Source: an uncultured Gammaproteobacteria bacterium (lineage in GTDB: Bacteria; Patescibacteriota; Patescibacteriia; VMEV01; CAYQCH01). Taken from it: a stretch of 64,000 nucleotides of DNA. A program made the translations under genes and the position numbers. The stretch is taken from positions 316,210 to 380,209 of the forward strand of contig CAZDCG010000001.1 in assembly GCA_964503955.1 (NCBI GenBank). The letters are read 5' to 3'. Position 1 is the stretch's first letter; each line of letters begins with the position of its first letter. The notes beneath the pieces are model-generated. The model was given only the letters and a program-made list of their open reading frames with translations, was not told the DNA's origin and ran no database searches. Below are positions 5,372 through 64,000 of the stretch, one piece after another.

Positions 5372-5447
5372 GGACCGGTGGTGTAGCGGTTAACATGCCT
5401 CCCTGTCACGGAGGAGATCGCGGGTTCGATTCCCGTCCGGTCCGCCA
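5372..5447 (+). tRNA. tRNA-Asp (anticodon GTC)
   Basis: GGACCGGTGGTGTAGCGGTTAACATGCCTCCCTGTCACGGAGGAGATCGCGGGTTCGATTCCCGTCCGGTCCGCCA. The cloverleaf, CTGTCAC anticodon loop, GTTCGATTC T-loop and encoded CCA are very close to E. coli tRNA-Asp. Confidence 0.9.
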
Positions 5448-6628
5448 CGAAGAGCCCCGTATTCACGGGGTTTTTCGTTTTGGGGCGCGGGCGTGTTGCC
5501 CACGGGTTGCCCAAGGATTGCTGAAGTCGGCGCCAGTGTCGGCGTGAGCGGCCCCAACTGGAAGACGAAGGACGATACCTCTCGCGCCGGCGAGAGCGGC
5601 CGACGGTCAAGCCGATCGACGAACTCCTTGAGGCGAGAGGGCTCGAGGTGGCTGTAGCGCATGGTGACCCGAATGTCACTATGGCCCAGCAGTTCCTGCA
5701 CGACCTTGAGGTGAGCGCCCGTTGCCACGAGGTGCGAGGCGAAGGTGTGGCGCAGTACATGCCACCCGACTTTGCGGAGGCCGGCAGCGGCGCACGCTTG
5801 CTTGAGCACGCGCGCCATGGCGTCTTGGTCCGAGTGCTTGCGGCCCGCGTCTTGCCCGAAGACAAAGCCCCTGCGGTGCGGCCATGCCCTCAGTGCTTCC
5901 TTCACGTCCTCGCTGAGCGGCACGTGGCGGATCTTGTTGCTCTTGGGAGGGCCGAGGCGGCGTCTCACCAGTGCCCGCCTCACCGTCAGCAGGCTCCCCT
6001 CGAGGTCGACGTCGGACCAGTCCAGCGCCAGCAGCTCTCCCAGGCGGAGCCCGGTGCGCATGGCGACGAGCACGACTCCACGCCAGAACGTGTCCTTCAT
6101 GCTCCGCAAGAGACGTTCGCTCTCCTCCAGCGTGAGGAAGTCGAACGCCTGAGGTGGAACGGGAAGAAGCCGGATCTTCGGGCGGCGGTCGAGCTCGCCC
6201 CACTCCTCGGCAATGCTAAGAGCCCGGCCGAGGGCGGCCAGGTAGTTGTTGACGGTCTTGGGCGCATAACCCTCTGCGCGCCTCGCCGCCTTGAAGCTCT
6301 CGATCAGCTTGGGGGAGATCTCATCGAGCCCGCACTCCCCGAAGAAGGGCAAGAGCTGACGGTCCAGAATAGACCGCTTCGTGCGCTGCTCGGAGTGGCG
6401 GTTGTTGGGCACGACGTACTCTCGGTACCACCGCTCGGCGAACTCCGCGAAAGTGGTGGCCTTGACGACAGGTGCGTCTGGATCAAAGCCGAGCGCGAGC
6501 TGGCGGCGGAAGTAGGTTTCGTACGCGGCAGCGCCCGCCCGGCTGCTTTCCGGGCTCTTGCGGCGATAGCGGATGCCAGCGTGGCGGAAGTCAATCCACC
6601 AGCGGTTGCGGATCTTGCGAGCGCTCAT
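5390..6628 (-). CDS. int: tyrosine-type site-specific integrase (phage-integrase family)
   Basis: Core-binding and catalytic domains with R...HVLRHTFASHLV (HxxR)...RVTMRYSHL (catalytic Tyr). The ORF runs with no stop through the att core and into the tRNA on the opposite strand, so the last ~60 codons are probably not authentic or reflect the recombinant junction. Confidence 0.9.
   Translation of the reverse strand: MSARKIRNRWWIDFRHAGIRYRRKSPESSRAGAAAYETYFRRQLALGFDPDAPVVKATTFAEFAERWYREYVVPNNRHSEQRTKRSILDRQLLPFFGECGLDEISPKLIESFKAARRAEGYAPKTVNNYLAALGRALSIAEEWGELDRRPKIRLLPVPPQAFDFLTLEESERLLRSMKDTFWRGVVLVAMRTGLRLGELLALDWSDVDLEGSLLTVRRALVRRRLGPPKSNKIRHVPLSEDVKEALRAWPHRRGFVFGQDAGRKHSDQDAMARVLKQACAAAGLRKVGWHVLRHTFASHLVATGAHLKVVQELLGHSDIRVTMRYSHLEPSRLKEFVDRLDRRPLSPAREVSSFVFQLGPLTPTLAPTSAILGQPVGNTPAPQNEKPREYGALRGGPDGNRTRDLLRDREAC
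5424..5448 (+). repeat. attL core (within tRNA-Asp 3' end)
   Basis: Exact 25-nt match to 9326-9350. Confidence 0.85.
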
Positions 6629-6894
6629 GGGGTGTTGTCGTCAACGGAGCCCACGCGGTGCTTGGCCAAGTAGGCCGCCAGGTCCTCCCGCGAGAAGCGC
6701 AGACTGCGGAGTACGCGGTGGAAGGGCAGCCGGCGCTGCTCCACAAGTCTGTAGACGCTGGCCCTGGAGATACCCAGCTGGCGGGCGACCTGGTCTGGCG
6801 TGAGGAGAAGGGGCGGCAAGGCGTGGTCCGGACGATGATGCCGTGGTTGGGCCGAATTGCGCAAATCCGGACTGTGGATAAGATCGTTGAGCAT
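6625..6894 (-). CDS. xis: excisionase/AlpA-like helix-turn-helix DNA-binding protein
   Basis: LLTPDQVARQLGISRASVYRLVEQRRLPFHRV is the HTH_17/Xis signature; overlaps the int start by 4 nt (xis-int operon). Confidence 0.7.
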   Translation of the reverse strand: MLNDLIHSPDLRNSAQPRHHRPDHALPPLLLTPDQVARQLGISRASVYRLVEQRRLPFHRVLRSLRFSREDLAAYLAKHRVGSVDDNTP

Positions 6895-7074
6895 GTTTTA
6901 TGTGGCTAAGGCTAGCGGAGAATCTATGTCCTCCCGCCCGGCAGGGACACGAACCTCGGTCGGTGTCCCTGCCAGGGTGACGGCGGCGCGAGGTGCGGCC
7001 GCACAGGCGCGAGGGCGCCCGGGAGGTGGCCAGCGGTGAGCTGGCCACGCCCGTGCCCGGGCGCTTCCGACCGG

Positions 7075-7635
7075 TCACGAGCTTGGCCTTCTCGTAGGCG
7101 GGAGAATCTTCTGCTCAATCAGATATGCCGCACCCACGGCTGCAGCGTCGAACATGTTGAGCCAGAAGGTCTCCTTCCACGCGTGGGTCTGGATCTTGTA
7201 AATCGCTAGTTCGGGGTAACGACGAATGATCTCGGTGGCGACAGTGGGCTTCTTGGCGTTTCCGTTCAGGCAGAGAATCGCTCGCGCTGAGCGCGGGGCA
7301 TACTCGACGACCAAGCCGTCGACGACGACGACCCGCTGCTCTCCGCTAGTGCGGACCGTCACCCGGTCGTTCACGACGACGGCGTCGCCGCTTCCGGGCT
7401 CGAGATCGAAGAACGTCTGCTGCTCGTCTTGGCTCACCCGGCAATCGTGCCTTACGGCCTCGTTGCCGCAAGGCAATAACGGGACACGTTCTGGTCCGCG
7501 CAATTGCCCGAGCGCTCCCGGGCCAAGCCCGCCTGTAGCGGCATCAGCAGGCGCTACGAGCCGCCGGCGGAGTCGAAAGGCGGACACATTGCGGTCCGCA
7601 GCTACCCGGCTGCCAGCCCTGCTACGACAGGGCAT
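7075..7635 (-). CDS. island cargo, hypothetical protein (start uncertain; the N-terminal ~60 codons may be non-coding)
   Basis: Only non-low-complexity frame in GC-rich DNA; the C-terminal ~110 aa (VVVNDRVTVRTSGEQRVVVVDGLVVEYAPRSARAILCLNGNAKKPT...IYKIQTHAWKETFWLNMFDAAAVGAAYLIEQK) is globular-looking; no family recognised by eye. Confidence 0.35.
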   Translation of the reverse strand: MPCRSRAGSRVAADRNVSAFRLRRRLVAPADAATGGLGPGALGQLRGPERVPLLPCGNEAVRHDCRVSQDEQQTFFDLEPGSGDAVVVNDRVTVRTSGEQRVVVVDGLVVEYAPRSARAILCLNGNAKKPTVATEIIRRYPELAIYKIQTHAWKETFWLNMFDAAAVGAAYLIEQKILPPTRRPSS

Positions 7636-7975
7636 GTCAGGAGGTCTGGAGTCTGGAGGAGGTGCGCGCCCACTTCCGGCGCCGCCTCGACGCCTACGTC
7701 TGCGAGGTCATGACCGAGCGCGCGTCCGCGCGCGCGGCGCTGGCCCCCAGGAAGGCCGACGATCGCAGCGCGACACTCCCCTACGGCTGCGGGACCTACT
7801 GGCTGGTCCGCTTCCACGGCGCGTCATGCGAGCACGCCCCGCCGGCCTGAGCGGCGAGCCGGGCCGCCGCGACGCGAGGCGCCCGGCGCGAGCGAGCTCG
7901 ATTGCGCGGCGCGCAGGCCGAGCGTGGATCGACGGAGCGCTGGAGCTCGCGGACGGCGCGGCAGTACCTGCCCAC

Positions 7976-8611
7976 TCACTGACCAGGACGAGGCGGAGCA
8001 TGCGCGAGAGCACTGAACTCGCCTACGTTCTGCATGGCATAATCAATAAGGCAATCATAAACGCGATCGCACTCGCCCTCAAAATTTAGAAACACCCTAC
8101 CCACAACGGTATCCTCCAAGCGCCCGTCGTATGCCCCGATACTCTCCAAGAACTCTCGACGTGCGTCGAGGTCTAGATGGGGATTTGGCCCTGGGAATGC
8201 GGCTACCGCCTCCGCCAAGTAACGAGCGGCATCGCGTGCCCCTATCTCCTCCAATGCCTGCACAAAAACAGAATACGACGGATTCCCGCCCCCGGCGAGA
8301 AGGTAGCAGTAGGCGTCGAGCAGAAACGGCTTGGCCTGGTCGAAGTCGAGCCAGATCAGGGCGTCAGCAATTTGACACCGCTCGCCAAAGTCGGCAAAAT
8401 CAAGAACGCTCACGTGGGGTGTTTCCTCGTGGGCCAGGATCCAGTTTACGCTGGACCTGGGGTAGCAGGTGGCTCCACCGCCTGCTGCCCGAACCCAGCA
8501 CTTGATCCCCCTGGCAGCCCTGGCGCAGTCAGGGGGTTTTCGTTGCAGGAGGGCGTGATCGATAGGCCGAGGGTGCTGCACCCGGCAAAAACAACGGACA
8601 GCATGGCACAA
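7976..8611 (-). CDS. island cargo, hypothetical protein (likely starts at the internal GTG near VSVLDFADF; ~145 aa)
   Basis: Conserved-looking region ...LDFADFGERCQIADALIWLDFDQAKPFLLDAYCYLLAGGGNPSYSVFVQALEEIG...; the N-terminal part of the long ORF is Cys/Arg-rich junk typical of wrong-frame GC-rich DNA. Confidence 0.4.
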   Translation of the reverse strand: MCHAVRCFCRVQHPRPIDHALLQRKPPDCARAARGIKCWVRAAGGGATCYPRSSVNWILAHEETPHVSVLDFADFGERCQIADALIWLDFDQAKPFLLDAYCYLLAGGGNPSYSVFVQALEEIGARDAARYLAEAVAAFPGPNPHLDLDARREFLESIGAYDGRLEDTVVGRVFLNFEGECDRVYDCLIDYAMQNVGEFSALAHAPPRPGQ

Positions 8612-8727
8612 ATAACGGCGATGACGGCTACTTTGCTAGTCGAGCCACCACTCTCGCGGCCAGTGGTCTGTGCATAGCCCTTGACAGTTAAGGAATTATG
8701 AACCAATCTCTGCCTAGAGTCGCTCAC
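8446..8727 (-). CDS. possible small lipoprotein (signal peptide + FAGC lipobox), island cargo
   Basis: Alternative frame overlapping the 5' end of the previous ORF: ...KVAVIAVICAMLSVVFAGCSTLGLSITPSCNENP... has a classic n-h-c lipoprotein signal; ends just before the probable GTG start of the downstream gene. Confidence 0.25.
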   Translation of the reverse strand: MSDSRQRLVHNSLTVKGYAQTTGRESGGSTSKVAVIAVICAMLSVVFAGCSTLGLSITPSCNENPLTAPGLPGGSSAGFGQQAVEPPATPGPA

Positions 8728-9325
8728 CTTTGTCCTCCCGTGGAAGGGTGCGCGATCCGCTGCTCCGGGAGCACCAGATCCGCCACCTGTGGCCTTGCTC
8801 CAGGTGCGTCAACACCCGGGGCTCGCGGCTCAGCGGCCCCCGAGGTCTACAGCTTCGGGGGTCTTCTCGCGCGAAAACCGATCTGACGATTCCGTGTGTC
8901 GGGCCCAGAGTCAACTGATTTCCCAACGACAGAATGAAAACCTCTCCACACCTTCTCAACGTCCGAGGCAGGGGCGCGTAACGCGCTGTTCTGTCAGGCC
9001 TTGCTCTTCGCGCGCGGTGGAGAGCAGGGCGAGAGTGACCAGGGCACAGACGGACAGGAGTCGCCTCCCTCGCTCCCGCTGCGAGATCGTCTTGTGGGAC
9101 GAGAGAGCAGTCGGACGAGATCCCACCGAGTCAGCGACTTGGCACCTGTGGCCGGTCTGGTCGTCCATGAGCTCCGGCGTTGACCGTTGCCCACCGATTG
9201 CCCAGGAAGTGCGGATTCAGCGGGGAAACAGCGCTGAACTGACCTGAGCTGAGAATCTCGATTCTGAGCTAAGGTTAGAGGAATTCCGCTAGAGCTAGCG
9301 ACGCTTCCGCTTTCGCCTCCTGCGC

Positions 9326-9350
9326 GTTCGATTCCCGTCCGGTCCGCCAC
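9326..9350 (+). repeat. attR core (duplicated tRNA-Asp 3' end)
   Basis: Exact 25-nt match to 5424-5448 with no tRNA body upstream of it. Confidence 0.85.
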
Positions 9351-29950: not shown

Positions 29951-30138
29951 CTCCCTTTCACCGCGAGTTTAACAAAGATCGCCAAATGTGGCCACAATGG
30001 ATTGTTTTTTAGGCGTTTTTCTGATAAGCTCGCTGGGAACAAGACCCGCAGACGCAACAGACTCCTTAGACTTACAGACAAGGAAAATGCGATGTCTGTG
30101 AGTCTTAAAGATCTGTGAATCTGTTATGTCTCACGTTT

Positions 30139-36667: not shown

Positions 36668-36812
36668 AGAGTAGAGGGCATCTTAGAGGAAATCGGGTTT
36701 GAATTCAAGCGGGAAGACGCACAGACATAACAGACTCTACAGACGCACAGACTGTTTTTGGAAAATGTGATTTGTCTGTGAGTCTAAAACGTCTGTGAAT
36801 CTGTGCGTCTGC

Positions 36813-54468: not shown

Positions 54469-54756
54469 CGCCCGCCGCCACCGTCGCAAGACACCAAGAC
54501 CCCGATTCGTCATCCGTGACACAAGAATCGGGGTCTTCTACGTTTCTCCCTCGTCACCTTATCCTTAATCTTCCCCTTAAACGAAAAGGAGGAGAACCTG
54601 AAGGATAAGAAAAACAAGCAACCCGCGAACTCGCTAACCCGTTAACTCGTCAACACGTTAACGCTTTTGACAAATCCCCCACCCAAACCTACGCTGTAGT
54701 TACATCCTATCAGCGGTTTTCCTACAGCCTACCTCCTACCGCCTTGAACCTAACCT

Positions 54757-55746
54757 ATGAAACAACGCATTCTTTCGGGCGTGCAGCCCTCAGGCGACCT
54801 TCATATCGGCAACTATATCGGCGCGCTCAAACAATGGGTGAATCTTCAGGACAAGTATGAAAATTACTTCTGCGTGGTGGATCACCATGCTATAACCGTT
54901 CCCCAAGATCCGCAGGATTTACGCCGCCGAACGGTTGAAATTGCCAAATGGTATCTTGCCTGCGGTATTGATCCTGATCGGTCAACAATTTTTATCCAGT
55001 CGCATGTTCCGGCACATACCGAGCTAGCCTGGATTCTTTCTTCCCTGACAAAAATCCCCGAAATGGAACGCATGACACAGTTCAAGGACAAATCCGCCAA
55101 GTCGCCAAAGAACGTGAATGCCGGTTTATTCACCTATCCTATTTTGATGGCAGCGGATATCCTGCTCTATCAAGCAAACCTCGTGCCTGTTGGAGATGAC
55201 CAGACTCAGCATCTGGAATTTACGCGCGTGATCGCTCGACGATTCAACCAGCACTATCAGCAGGAAATTTTTACTGAGCCGGAACAATTCACCCCGCCCC
55301 AGGGAGCGCGCGTCATGTCTTTAAGCGAGCCGGAGAAGAAAATGAGCAAAAGCGACCGTTCGCAAAACTCGCTCATTTATTTGATTGACGATGAAGAAAC
55401 GATCAAGAAGAAAATCAAAAAGGCAGTCACCGATTCCGGCGATGAAATCGAATACAGCGACAATAAACCGGCGCTGAAAAACCTGCTGACAATTTATAGC
55501 GCGTTTTCCGGCGAACCGATCCCGCAAATTGTGAAACATTATAACGGCATGGGATATAAACTCTTCAAAGAAGGCTTGTCAAAAACGATTATCGAGGGTC
55601 TCCGACCGATTCAGGAAACCTACGCCAAGCTTGAGAAAGATCCTTCCTATGTCCATGCGATTCTTGCAAACGGCGCGGAGAAAGCAAATCAGCTCGCGCA
55701 ATCAACTCTGCGTAATATCAAAAACGCCGTGGGATATTATTCATAA
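54757..55746 (+). CDS. trpS: tryptophanyl-tRNA synthetase
   Basis: SGVQPSGDLHIGNY (HIGH) and KMSKS motifs; 329 aa. Confidence 0.95.
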   Translation: MKQRILSGVQPSGDLHIGNYIGALKQWVNLQDKYENYFCVVDHHAITVPQDPQDLRRRTVEIAKWYLACGIDPDRSTIFIQSHVPAHTELAWILSSLTKIPEMERMTQFKDKSAKSPKNVNAGLFTYPILMAADILLYQANLVPVGDDQTQHLEFTRVIARRFNQHYQQEIFTEPEQFTPPQGARVMSLSEPEKKMSKSDRSQNSLIYLIDDEETIKKKIKKAVTDSGDEIEYSDNKPALKNLLTIYSAFSGEPIPQIVKHYNGMGYKLFKEGLSKTIIEGLRPIQETYAKLEKDPSYVHAILANGAEKANQLAQSTLRNIKNAVGYYS

Positions 55747-61112: not shown

Positions 61113-61190
61113 TGTTCACGTGTTAATGAGTTAACGTGTTAACGGGTTTGCCTTGAACGCGTTAACTCATGAACATGCTAACCCGTTAAC

Positions 61191-62900
61191 ATGTCCTACA
61201 ACGAACTTATCAAACAAATCGTCGCGCAACAACCGTCATCCAGAAACGAGATGCAGACGATCATTCGTACACATATCAAATCACGCGGAGCATCCTTTCC
61301 GCGTTTTTCGCATTTGCTTGAAGCCTATCGATCCTTGGTGGCCGGCAAGGAGCTTGAAGCGCAGCCCTGGCTTGAGCCGCTGCTTATCAAACGCGCGATC
61401 CGCACGCTTTCGGGCGTAGCGCCTGTCCATGTCATGACGGCACCGCTTGGATGTCCGGCCAATTGCCTGTACTGCCCGAATGAGCCGGGCATGCCCAAAA
61501 GCTATCTTTCCAATCAGCCGGGTTCCATGCGCGCGATTCTCAATGACTTTGACCCGTACAAACAAGTCACCATGCGGCTGCGCGCGCTCTATCAGAACGG
61601 ACACCATCCCGAAAAAATCGAATTGGTTGAAAATGGCGGAACATGGACCGCGCTGCCACGTCGTTACCGCACCTGGTTTATCACCCGCTGCTATCAAGCT
61701 GCCAATGATTTTGATCCTCAAGACTTTGTCAAAACAACGGACTTCATTCCGTCTAATAATTCCCGTTTGACGATTTTAAACCGGCTCAAAGAACAGCCTG
61801 ATCATCTGCTGAAAGCATCGCTGCGCTTGCATGACGAAGACGACGAGGATTTGCTTACCGAACTTTTTGCCGCGCAAAAGATGAATGAAACAGCCCGCTA
61901 TCGCATCATCGGCATCACGCTTGAAACCCGCCCTGACTGGCTGGCTGATGATGAAATCCATCACCTGCGTCTCATGGGCTGCACCAAGCTTGAGATCGGC
62001 GTACAAAGCATCAATGAAGAAGTATTGAAATGGAATAATCGCGGACATGGCGTAGAGGCAGTTATTAACGCGACGCAAGCCTTGCGCGACGCGGGCTTTA
62101 AAGTCGGCTACCATATGATGCCGGGGATGTTTAAGTCCACACCGGAATCAGACAAACAAATGTTTGTGGAGCTCTTCGCCAACCCCGCGTTTAAGCCGGA
62201 CTTTCTCAAAGTTTATCCTTGCGTTGTCGTGCAAGAAGCTCCTCTGTATAAACTCTGGGAGCGCGGTGAGTATAAACCCTATGAAGGAGACGAACTCATC
62301 GACGTACTGATTACCATTTCACAGACCTTCCCCCGCTATTGCCGCGTCGCGCGCCTCATTCGCGATATTCCTTCAGAAAGTATTTCGGGCGGGAATAAAA
62401 TCACCAATCTCAGAGAAGTCGTTGAGCAAAACATGCGCCAGCTTGGAATTGCTTCGCAAGATATCCGCGCTCGCGAAGTCATGGGCAATGTGCAGAATGA
62501 AGAACTGGCGCACAATGATCTCGTGTATGAAACCATCAACGGCGAAGAGCATTTCCTCAGCTTTGACGGGCAGGATTCCGACAAGCTCTACGCATTCCTG
62601 CGCTTGCGGCTCCCGCAAAGCAATTCCCATTTGATCAAAACAACCTTTCCCGAGCTGATGAATGCCGCGCTGATCCGCGAAGTGCATACCTATGGCAAGC
62701 TCGCGCGTATTGGAAATGACGATGAGACAAAGCAGGCGCAACACAAAGGACTTGGCAAACAGCTGATGGAAAAAGCCGAAGAGCTTGCGCGCAATCGTGG
62801 TTATAAAAAAATCGCCGTCATCGCCGGCGTGGGAACGCGCGAATATTATCGAAAATTCGGCTACGAGCTTGAGGGGACATATATGGTGAAACCGCTCTAA
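61191..62900 (+). CDS. Elp3-like radical SAM + GNAT acetyltransferase (tRNA U34 modification family)
   Basis: Radical-SAM Cys cluster (GCPANCLYCPN), a large radical-SAM core, and a C-terminal GNAT fold (...[41 protein letters not shown]). Confidence 0.8.
   Translation: MSYNELIKQIVAQQPSSRNEMQTIIRTHIKSRGASFPRFSHLLEAYRSLVAGKELEAQPWLEPLLIKRAIRTLSGVAPVHVMTAPLGCPANCLYCPNEPGMPKSYLSNQPGSMRAILNDFDPYKQVTMRLRALYQNGHHPEKIELVENGGTWTALPRRYRTWFITRCYQAANDFDPQDFVKTTDFIPSNNSRLTILNRLKEQPDHLLKASLRLHDEDDEDLLTELFAAQKMNETARYRIIGITLETRPDWLADDEIHHLRLMGCTKLEIGVQSINEEVLKWNNRGHGVEAVINATQALRDAGFKVGYHMMPGMFKSTPESDKQMFVELFANPAFKPDFLKVYPCVVVQEAPLYKLWERGEYKPYEGDELIDVLITISQTFPRYCRVARLIRDIPSESISGGNKITNLREVVEQNMRQLGIASQDIRAREVMGNVQNEELAHNDLVYETINGEEHFLSFDGQDSDKLYAFLRLRLPQSNSHLIKTTFPELMNAALIREVHTYGKLARIGNDDETKQAQHKGLGKQLMEKAEELARNRGYKKIAVIAGVGTREYYRKFGYELEGTYMVKPL
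62798..62900 (+). repeat. elp3 3' end, copy 1 of a ~92-bp direct repeat
   Basis: ttataaaaaaatcgccgtcatcgccggcgtgggaacgcgcgaatattatcgaaaattcggctacgagcttgaggggacatatatggtgaa is repeated at 63638-63730 with ~6 mismatches and one 1-nt deletion. Confidence 0.8.
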
Positions 62901-62951
62901 ATAAATCATCCCCGCAGAATAGGAGCATCCTGCGGGGAATAGGTAGCGGTC

Positions 62952-63548
62952 TCAAACCGCGATATCACCACCCTCTCTTTTGTCCCAACCCCCGTCACGC
63001 AGGTACGTGAAGCCTGTTCCGTTATCGAATCTGAACTGGCCGAATCGATGGAGAGACAACAGCAGTGGAGGGACAGCAAGCTCTGCAAGATCCCAATCAG
63101 CTATCTGAGCGGCCTCTACTGCATCGATGCACTTCAGGCCGGCGTCACGTGCGAGCTCTCGGTCACCGCCTCCGCAAAAGACAAGGTCAACTAAGCAGAC
63201 ATCAGTATGTGGCAGCTCAGGAATCTCAAACTCCAAAATAGAGTGCATCACAGGAAGAGGCAGGTCGTTAAACATGCCACTATTCTCTAGGGCTTTGAGG
63301 CACTCTAGTTCGGCCACATTAACCTGATGACAGGCTAGCGACTCCCGAAGATCCCATTCCCTCAAGACCCTTACCGCACTACCCATTTCTGAGCCTAGGT
63401 GCTTGGTACTCTCATCAATGTCTCGCATGCGTTGAACACAAGCAGCGCTCCAGAGATCGCGCAGCTTCAGAAACGGCTGCACGTCGTAGCCGGATGAGGC
63501 CTCATGCAGCGGCACTGAGAACGAAGCGTTTGTCAGAAAAAAATACAC
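62952..63548 (-). CDS. hypothetical protein carried on the 740-bp insert between the elp3 3'-end repeats
   Basis: 198-aa ORF; no recognisable family. Confidence 0.4.
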   Translation of the reverse strand: MYFFLTNASFSVPLHEASSGYDVQPFLKLRDLWSAACVQRMRDIDESTKHLGSEMGSAVRVLREWDLRESLACHQVNVAELECLKALENSGMFNDLPLPVMHSILEFEIPELPHTDVCLVDLVFCGGGDRELARDAGLKCIDAVEAAQIADWDLAELAVPPLLLSLHRFGQFRFDNGTGFTYLRDGGWDKREGGDIAV

Positions 63549-63637
63549 CAGCTCTCCTTTGAAGTCGCTAATGTAGCGACGTTACACGATACCCTTTTCC
63601 TTCGAAATCGTCAATATCGCTGAGCTAAAAGCAAGCG

Positions 63638-63730
63638 CAGTTATAAAAAATCGCCGTGATCGCCGGCGTGGGAACGCGCGAATACTATCGAAAATTCGGC
63701 TACGAGCTGAAAGGGACATATATGGTGAAG
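63638..63730 (+). repeat. degenerate duplicate of the elp3 3' end (copy 2)
   Basis: See 62798-62900; frameshifted relative to elp3, so non-coding. Confidence 0.8.
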
Positions 63731-63789
63731 AGACTGGATCACGAGATCACCAGAACATGAAATCAAAGAGCAATGATCAAGGAGCAATG

Positions 63790-64000
63790 TTATTCTTTGA
63801 GACGCACAACTTTGCCCTTATTCTTCTTCGCGAATTGCTCCAATTGCTTATCAAATGTCACAAGCTTATAACCGTACTGATTACTCATATATGCAAGCGT
63901 GTAATCAGTGAAAGACATTTTTGTCTTGAAATGAAGAAAGAAAAAGAGCTCCTGCTCATAACCATTCTCAACCAGCCGAGCAGATTGACTGTTAATCAGT
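63790..64000 (-). CDS. PIN-domain (VapC-like) protein, C-terminal part (runs off the window end)
   Basis: ...YGYKLVTFDKQLEQFAKKN... resembles the C-terminal LVTxDxxF motif of PIN nucleases. Confidence 0.3.
   Translation of the reverse strand, partial: LINSQSARLVENGYEQELFFFLHFKTKMSFTDYTLAYMSNQYGYKLVTFDKQLEQFAKKNKGKVVRLKE

Follow-up and report, generated by a model that had tools for sequence, protein, structure and literature searches.

At the Escherichia coli icd gene, e14 and phage 21 bring their own copy of the gene end, and the old end persists as the icdC pseudogene (PMC13626634, citing Hill et al. 1989, PMC210168). Most differences between the icd and icdC ends are silent, only one or two residues being changed, and a crossover joining the two regenerates a chimeric gene (PMC13626634). 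Cis-mobilizable elements (CIMEs) are bounded by attL and attR sites derived from the end of their target gene, lack genes for integration and transfer, and use a recombinase supplied in trans (PMC5704250). In islands of the Tycheposon type, described from streamlined genomes, repeated integration at one gene end leaves partial target copies and cargo-only remnants (bioRxiv 10.1101/2020.12.28.424599). Here we analyse a locus of this kind at the 3' end of elp3 in a 64,000-nucleotide stretch of contig CAZDCG010000001.1 from an uncultured bacterium (hereafter "the window", to which coordinates refer unless a contig is named). The locus is a real, recent insertion adjoining a displaced C-terminal fragment of elp3. 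It resembles e14 at icd, without the recombinase that defines that family. A literature search gave no relevant account of elp3 serving as an integration site.

An initial annotation of the window had read the locus as a duplication of the last ~92 nt of elp3 around foreign DNA, left by site-specific integration into the end of the gene. The features on which our analysis bears are the following.

61191..62900, plus strand: elp3, an intact 569-aa radical-SAM/GNAT gene, whose last ~110 nt are the occupied target
62791..62890 (core 62806-62890), plus strand: repeat copy A, the working 3' coding end of elp3
62891..62900, plus strand: copy A-specific tail, ..PL and TAA, abutting the T-tract of the ORF198 terminator
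62909..62938, minus strand: terminator hairpin, a 13-bp stem followed by TGATTTATTT on the minus strand (terminator scan and inverted-repeat search)
62952..63548, minus strand: ORF198, a 198-aa acidic ORFan open reading frame (ORF) with a GTG start, the sole gene of the insert
63586..63614, minus strand: sigma-70-like promoter match, TTGACG-17-TATCGT, upstream of ORF198 (a consensus match only)
63631..63729 (core 63645-63729), plus strand: repeat copy B, the displaced elp3 3' end fragment, with its left 14 nt more diverged
63730..63760, plus strand: copy B tail, in-frame ..RLDHEITRT and TGA, low in GC like vapBC
63790..64000, minus strand: 3' part of vapC (PIN, 131 aa), converging on copy B

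The repeated elp3 end reported by the initial annotation is genuine. BLAST aligns 62791-62890 with 63631-63729 over 100 nt (91% identity, E-value = 1e-33, one 1-nt gap), and a repeat search delimits a core pair, 62806-62890 and 63645-63729, with 80 of 85 nt equal (94%) at a spacing of 839 nt. This is the top direct repeat by length across the whole window. The core exhibits five substitutions, and the leftward extension of 14 nt adds three more. The A7 run of copy A is reduced to A6 in copy B (62805-62811 and 63645-63650), so that the frame-breaking 1-nt deletion stands as annotated. The repeated segment is not the very last part of the gene: it halts 10 nt short of the elp3 end, after ...ATGGTGAA, and leaves the final codons and the stop outside. 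Copy A spans ...NRGYKK to ...GTYMVK of Elp3, and the gene ends in ...YMVKPL-stop. Past the repeat the tails differ, being KPL* behind copy A and, in the elp3 frame, RLDHEITRT followed by TGA behind copy B.

Leftward of 63631 there is no significant likeness to elp3. Copy B is thus a short fragment and no part of a larger segmental duplication, the outcome that the initial annotation had named as the one to contradict it. No third elp3 copy occurs past vapBC in the contig that extends the window (L003). Five independently assembled contigs, from different runs, show an identical layout down to the single base, the joint at 63600-63650 included, which rules out an assembly artefact or chimera. 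The crossover, if any, lies inside the repeat or at its left edge. Position 63730, which had been taken as the end of the element, is merely where conservation among elp3 alleles stops; the novel joint is at 63631-63645. As a separate observation, each copy includes a 5-bp GC hairpin (62813-62829 and 63652-63668) that, read on the minus strand, leads into a T-run, the complement of the A7 run. This weak terminator-like site faces the vapBC operon and coincides with the left edge of the repeat.

Forty homologous elp3 loci in genome contigs were confirmed by tblastn. The Elp3 protein of the window has the Pfam domains Radical_SAM, Radical_SAM_C and Acetyltransf_1, and its C-terminus can be aligned with its homologues right to the end. 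On the side of the gene the replacement-end interpretation holds, in that the upstream copy A keeps elp3 whole as a 569-aa ORF with all domains.

What copy B had been before is indicated by its tail. A chimeric query, joining the Elp3 C-terminal region to the tail of copy B, matched a 172-aa Elp3 fragment (P0004) from an unrelated sample, SRR5690606, with 97% identity. The terminus of this fragment, ...GTYMVKALDHEITRS / ...YMVKALDHEITRS (...KALDHEITRS), corresponds to the tail behind copy B, which is therefore the true Elp3 C-terminus of a sister strain represented by P0004. The differences between copies point the same way. Pooled over the window genome and a second occupied genome described below (L126), 13 of the 15 nucleotide differences between copies A and B fall in third codon positions (binomial p = 3e-5), and the codon differences comprise 12 synonymous and 2 non-synonymous ones. 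The latter, Glu to Lys in the window and Met to Val in L126, affect conserved residues and both lie in the fragment copies. The third-position bias implies that selection on the Elp3 frame acted on both copies, as two alleles 6-9% apart. By this codon pattern, copy B is recognizable as a fragment of an elp3 end that was functional until recently, neither random sequence nor decay debris. Its left edge behaves differently: 4 of 15 nt differ there, as against 5 of 85 in the core (Fisher p = 0.027), and the frameshift sits in the same place. Such raised divergence together with a frameshift is expected if an untranslated arm arrived with the insert and had never been under coding selection.

The initial annotation had suggested looking in relatives for the same repeat pair around different cargo. 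This was found once, in L126, which we located through its VapC (58% identical to that of the window). The Elp3 proteins of L006, L007 and L126 are each 67-68% identical to that of the window, and that of L126 is 83.5% identical to that of L006. The intervals between elp3 and glyA in these genomes are as follows.

Window and L003: ORF198, copy B, vapBC; second elp3 end present
L006: empty, an 88-nt spacer; no second elp3 end
L007: IS200-like Y1 transposase gene and ORF222; no second elp3 end
L126: insert, copy B', DUF6176 gene, UCP032817-like gene, vapC, antitoxin gene, ORF190; second elp3 end present

The differing contents identify the elp3-glyA interval as a variable spot. In L126 the second elp3 end comprises 87 nt, is 90.8% identical to the end of its own gene and lies 860 nt downstream. 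It begins at the equivalent A-run (AAAAAAATCGCC) and finishes at the equivalent GGTGAA, with KYFG-stop as the tail of the gene and KTLR-stop as that of the fragment. The copies are 91-94% identical within each genome and ~80% identical in every pairing between lineages, so that the events in the window and in L126 are recent and separate, without inheritance from a common ancestor. The two occupied genomes are not sisters; the nearest relative of L126, L006, is unoccupied, its elp3 being followed directly by glyA. No second elp3 end occurs in the other 120 genomic or metagenomic and 80 viral Elp3 loci examined, and it is thus no general property of elp3. Regions to the left of the A-run have no significant common sequence in any pairing of copies, a comparison of low power in which true orthologues reach only p = 0.05. 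The nearest genome match to the window, L008 (82%), stops inside elp3, and P0127 (L127) has an unrelated context. A scan of JGI metagenomes for close relatives with empty-site DNA gave nothing above 48% identity, and P0004 has no contig on record.

The L126 insert (760 nt) is unrelated to ORF198. It comprises a near-consensus promoter (TTGACA-17-TGnTATAGT), ~650 nt without a credible ORF and a GC-rich terminator hairpin. This ~650-nt non-coding unit (L126 3030-3692, minus strand) has a sigma-70 promoter matching at 11 of 12 positions, with an extended -10 element. Its predicted fold is markedly more stable than those of shuffled sequences (z = -10.1). The L126 sequence has no match in Rfam and no tRNA or tmRNA, and its insert has no phage match. 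On the folding prediction, the unit may be an undescribed large structured RNA.

Some further genes of the interval in these relatives can be noted here. ORF190 (L126 634-1203, plus strand) and ORF222 (L007 8451-9116, minus strand) are homologous (BLASTP E-value = 2e-6), have no family annotation and are both transcribed divergently from glyA. The IS200-like Y1 transposase gene of L007 (7814-8377; PF01797, E-value = 4e-8) starts 40 nt past the elp3 stop, with no elp3 duplication.

In the window, the DNA between the copies (~740 bp) is a single compact unit on the minus strand, comprising a promoter-like site, a Shine-Dalgarno sequence, ORF198 and a strong terminator. The motif AAAGGAG lies seven bases ahead of the GTG start. 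At the other end, the T-tract of the terminator overlaps the elp3 stop codon, the hairpin itself lying 9 nt past that stop. The 198-aa ORF on the opposite strand and the PIN gene downstream are both as the initial annotation had described them. Searches of 5.8 billion clustered proteins and, by phmmer, of 1.84 billion representatives returned only self-matches for ORF198, and it has no match in Pfam, PHROGs, PADLOC or a plasmid tblastn search. Residues 172-197 match weakly, and uninformatively, a repeat in a 5786-aa protein (E-value = 4e-5). A single-sequence AlphaFold (AF2) model is unusable (pLDDT, the predicted local distance difference test score, of 40). The predicted RNA fold of the ORF198 region is unremarkable on either strand (z about -1.2), and a protein-coding gene is accordingly the sensible reading. 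Rfam yields nothing in the window from 62500 to 64000. ORF198 and the ORF190/ORF222 pair have two short collinear motifs in common, a faint likeness that is not significant and that we take as a hint only (BLASTP E-value = 0.07-0.16, hhalign E-value = 0.12, profile rank 33 of 2001 shuffles).

We propose that the locus arose by a site-directed insertion into elp3 that brought a replacement gene end, the recombinase being supplied in trans, and we give this reading a probability of about 0.45. Under this proposal ~0.84 kb from a close relative, containing a replacement elp3 end with its stop codon and the ORF198 unit, would have entered the final ~100 nt of elp3 by recombination, with the crossover at the A7 run (62805-62811 / 63645-63650) or immediately to its left. 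Because the incoming DNA provides the last 30 codons, the gene would have stayed whole, while the former end would have been shifted 839 nt downstream, beside vapBC, where it would now be decaying through the A-run frameshift and the change of Glu to Lys at a conserved residue. A crossover between the 85-nt repeats would release a circle of 839 bp, and elp3 would regain the B-type tail, as in the sister strain. The restored junction would join the A-type polymorphisms GTC..TAT..CTTGAG to ...GGTGAAGAGACTGGATCAC, and the junction of the circle would join 63600-63644 to the A-type core and ACCGCTCTAAATAAATCA.

The second occurrence speaks for this proposal. So does the more diverged, frameshifted left edge of copy B, which fits an untranslated arm borne by the insert and joined at the A-run to a host-derived arm that had been translated. 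Independent recurrence at a matching point, in a gene whose products are 67% identical and around unrelated cargo, favours a mechanism with a preference for the site. If joints fell uniformly along the 1.7-kb gene, two of them would lie within ~14 nt by chance in roughly 2% of cases, by our estimate. Both inserts are also tidy single units of nearly equal size, as reflected in repeat spacings of 839 and 860 nt. A wider generalization, that elp3 serves in this clade as a docking site for recombinase-less "gene-end cassettes" of ~0.85 kb, is speculative, and we regard it as doubtful. Each cassette would be made of a replacement end and one self-contained transcription unit, for an ORFan protein in the window and for the ~650-nt highly structured RNA in L126; a recombinase of the host, or one acting in trans, would insert it at a set position, or it would move as a small circle.

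A number of observations weigh against a site-directed insertion. Neither the window insert, nor the L126 insert, nor the DNA adjoining the window insert contains a recombinase or a remnant of one. The initial annotation was right that no integrase is present here, the insert carrying only ORF198, which has no family match. The sole integrase among 30 scanned ORFs of the window (5390-6628) is 56 kb away, in a tRNA-Asp island. The inserts of the window and L126 have no sequence in common outside the elp3 segment, and no shared arm sites or terminal repeats, and the left boundaries of their repeats are ~14 nt apart. Occupied loci total just two. A profile scan of IMG/VR retained 80 loci, all of them full-length Elp3, mostly from giant-virus bins, and no isolated elp3 3' fragment; the exact core pattern gave no match in the same database. 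The GC content of the insert (0.52) equals that of the genome (0.517), so that it is not compositionally foreign and the "foreign DNA" of the initial annotation finds no support. If its faint likeness to ORF190/ORF222 is real, ORF198 would be a very diverged relative of these genes and a local gene rather than mobile cargo. Finally, the empty allele with the B-type tail is known solely as the protein fragment P0004, with no flanking DNA. The integration reading of the initial annotation is partly supported: the displaced functional gene end, the gene kept whole by copy A and the repeat pair around other cargo in L126 agree with it, and site-specific recombination is only inferred, there being no integrase, remnant or common arm.

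Several of these points also fit the main rival, an exchange between strains, which we consider possible and somewhat unlikely. The locus would then be a hybrid of two versions of the interval, elp3(KPL*)-ORF198-glyA and elp3(LDHEITRT*)-vapBC-glyA, produced by ordinary recombination with no dedicated recombinase. After uptake of DNA from a close relative, homology-facilitated illegitimate recombination would have linked it to the resident sequence through a homologous crossover on one side (in elp3 or in glyA) and an illegitimate joint, at 63631-63645, on the other; the incomer could be either ORF198 or copy B with vapBC. Both copies resemble functional alleles diverged by just 6-9%, as fits exchange among close relatives, and the native base composition of the insert, the want of a recombinase and of conserved element ends, and the possibility that ORF198 is a diverged homologue of ORF190/ORF222, genes resident beside glyA (rank 33 among 2001 shuffles by profile score), all agree with such an origin. 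So does the variability of the interval, which is empty in L006, holds the IS200-like gene and ORF222 in L007, and five genes and the RNA unit in L126. The right edge of the repeat explains itself in this case, being the end of elp3 conservation. The left edge does not, since two independent illegitimate joints would have to fall within ~14 nt in a 1.7-kb gene, either through the roughly 2% coincidence given above or at some hotspot, and the raised divergence and frameshift confined to the left edge of copy B are unexpected for one native piece. Moreover, an incoming end with ~100 nt of elp3 homology would normally replace the resident DNA homologously rather than duplicate it. The topology of the locus is also exactly that of a single crossover, as if a circle of ~0.84 kb carrying an elp3 fragment of ~87-100 nt had entered in Campbell fashion through RecA and could loop out again. 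RecA could recombine repeats of this length, the units of the two genomes are similar in size (repeat spacings of 839 and 860 nt), and the loss of e14 through recombination of icd with icdC illustrates that repeats of this sort recombine (PMC13626634). Such a circle would leave unexplained how two unrelated cargoes each acquired one and the same piece of elp3, left edge included, as well as the decayed left arm, and no such circle or plasmid was found in IMG/VR or by plasmid tblastn; we judge this origin improbable.

An old duplication inherited from a common ancestor, with copies homogenized by gene conversion and the intervening DNA turned over later, would account for the left boundary near the equivalent A-run and for the adjacent vapBC in both lineages. 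It is nonetheless very improbable. Differences that are almost only synonymous are unlike those of a neutral fragment (P <= 0.002 under decay in situ, if a non-synonymous fraction of 0.56 is assumed), neither the tails nor the flanks of the B copies have anything in common between lineages, L006 and L007 branch between the occupied genomes and lack the duplication, and direct repeats 0.8 kb apart would be unstable over such a time. Diversity-generating retroelements are common in small-genome uncultured bacteria, and direct repeats ~90% identical at a gene 3' end resemble their pairs of variable and template repeats. Here, A is the base in the putative template (copy B) at only 4 of 15 differences, 13 of 15 differences are in third positions and not in the first two positions of AAY codons, and no reverse transcriptase gene occurs between elp3 and glyA. 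A long target-site duplication would begin identical and diverge at random positions, whereas these repeats have diverged in a coding pattern. To a retroelement pair, a target-site duplication or an assembly chimera we attach next to no weight. A transposon, miniature inverted-repeat transposable element (MITE) or insertion sequence was also rejected, as neither insert has terminal inverted repeats and the repeats are 85-100 nt long.

The flank downstream of copy B is resolved by the L003 contig, in which copy B is followed by vapC (30 nt past the stop of B), a phd/yefM-type antitoxin gene, a 520-nt spacer and glyA. The toxin gene product matches the PIN family of Pfam (E-value = 5e-12) and the antitoxin matches PhdYeFM_antitox (E-value = 5e-7) with 29.7 bits, just below the Pfam cutoff of 29.8 bits. 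The two genes overlap by 4 nt (L003 5264-5904), as expected of a type II toxin-antitoxin vapBC pair. This pair (window 63730-64000, L003 5204-5904) is the compositionally foreign part of the locus, with a GC content of 0.39, the genome having 0.52. This low-GC DNA also encodes the extended Elp3 tail LDHEITRT, and the original elp3 stop codon was probably replaced by an earlier vapBC insertion. TCTGT/CAGA-rich repeats fill the spacer before glyA (L003 6080-6400). They resemble a 32-nt repeat of the window, TGTCTGTGAGTCTTAAAGATCTGTGAATCTGT, which occurs in two 91% identical copies (30093-30124 and 36773-36804) directly upstream of two gene starts on opposite strands.

Two other kinds of repeats were observed in the window. 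Arrays of 8-nt periodicity, containing AACNCGTT / GTTAAC with nested inverted repeats, occupy 61114-61195, between a methyltransferase gene and elp3, and 54620-54667, just upstream of a tryptophanyl/tyrosyl-tRNA synthetase-family gene at 54757; from their sequence and placement they look like shared operator sites. At 5372-9350 the window contains a classical small integrative island. A 412-aa tyrosine integrase (5390-6628, minus strand) overlaps with its 3' end the tRNA-Asp gene (5372-5447), four small ORFs lie inside, and a 29-nt attachment (att) repeat of the tRNA 3' end (28 of 29 nt) is found 3.9 kb away at 9322-9350. Nothing connects this integrase with elp3.

If the site-directed reading is true, the locus would represent a minimal form of gene-end integration, in which a single gene travels with a spare end and without a recombinase gene. 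The process would be at work in uncultured bacteria with small genomes, about whose ways of acquiring genes little is known. It would make elp3 one more of the few protein-coding genes used for attachment, and would bring to light two cargoes that are so far unexplored: an ORFan protein and a large structured RNA. Should the locus instead be a hybrid of two strain versions, it would be a clean natural case of strain exchange adding genes at a variable spot and leaving a dated scar.

Compared with described systems, the locus lies nearest to e14 and phage 21 at icd, and we set the others beside it before returning to that case. Like the CIMEs, for instance those next to ICESt1/ICESt3 at the 3' end of the streptococcal fda gene, the window insert has att-type flanks and no integration or transfer genes. 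CIMEs differ in being recognizably decayed integrative and conjugative or integrative and mobilizable elements, found beside intact elements at the same site, whereas the window insert has neither remnants nor a partner. No intact element occupies the elp3 site in the 200 other Elp3 loci, the 80 from IMG/VR included. The repeat of a CIME at fda is ~27 nt long, as against 85-100 nt in the window. Tycheposons differ in their tRNA targets and tyrosine recombinases; nothing comparable was found at elp3, and the tRNA-Asp island of the window is of the classical type.

Homology-facilitated illegitimate recombination, a process of naturally transformable bacteria that can place foreign DNA beside a conserved gene, is similar in combining one homologous anchor with one illegitimate joint, in drawing on a close-relative donor and in needing no mobile-element machinery. 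Its usual outcome is a loss of recipient DNA, whereas 100 nt are duplicated in the window, and there is no reason to expect its joints to fall repeatedly at one position. In the orphan C-terminal modules of the rhs and cdiA toxin genes, recombination within a conserved stretch brings in a new end, and the previous one persists downstream as a fragment. Those ends are whole toxin domains with immunity genes; in the window the tails are 2-9 residues long and Elp3 is a housekeeping tRNA-modification enzyme.

The e14 element is larger (~15 kb) and has integrase and excisionase genes of its own, while the window insert has 0.74 kb, one ORFan and no phage genes, and its target is elp3. An element-encoded tyrosine or serine recombinase next to the att site, typical of e14, is missing from the window locus. 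Four other hallmarks of the e14 type are present: flanking repeats, an intact target, a former functional end and, in one further instance, the same site with other cargo. As at icd, the insert lies in the 3' end of a protein-coding gene, the gene is intact and its old end is displaced to the far side. For annotation, the 100-nt fragment is best called a displaced elp3 C-terminal pseudogene, like icdC.

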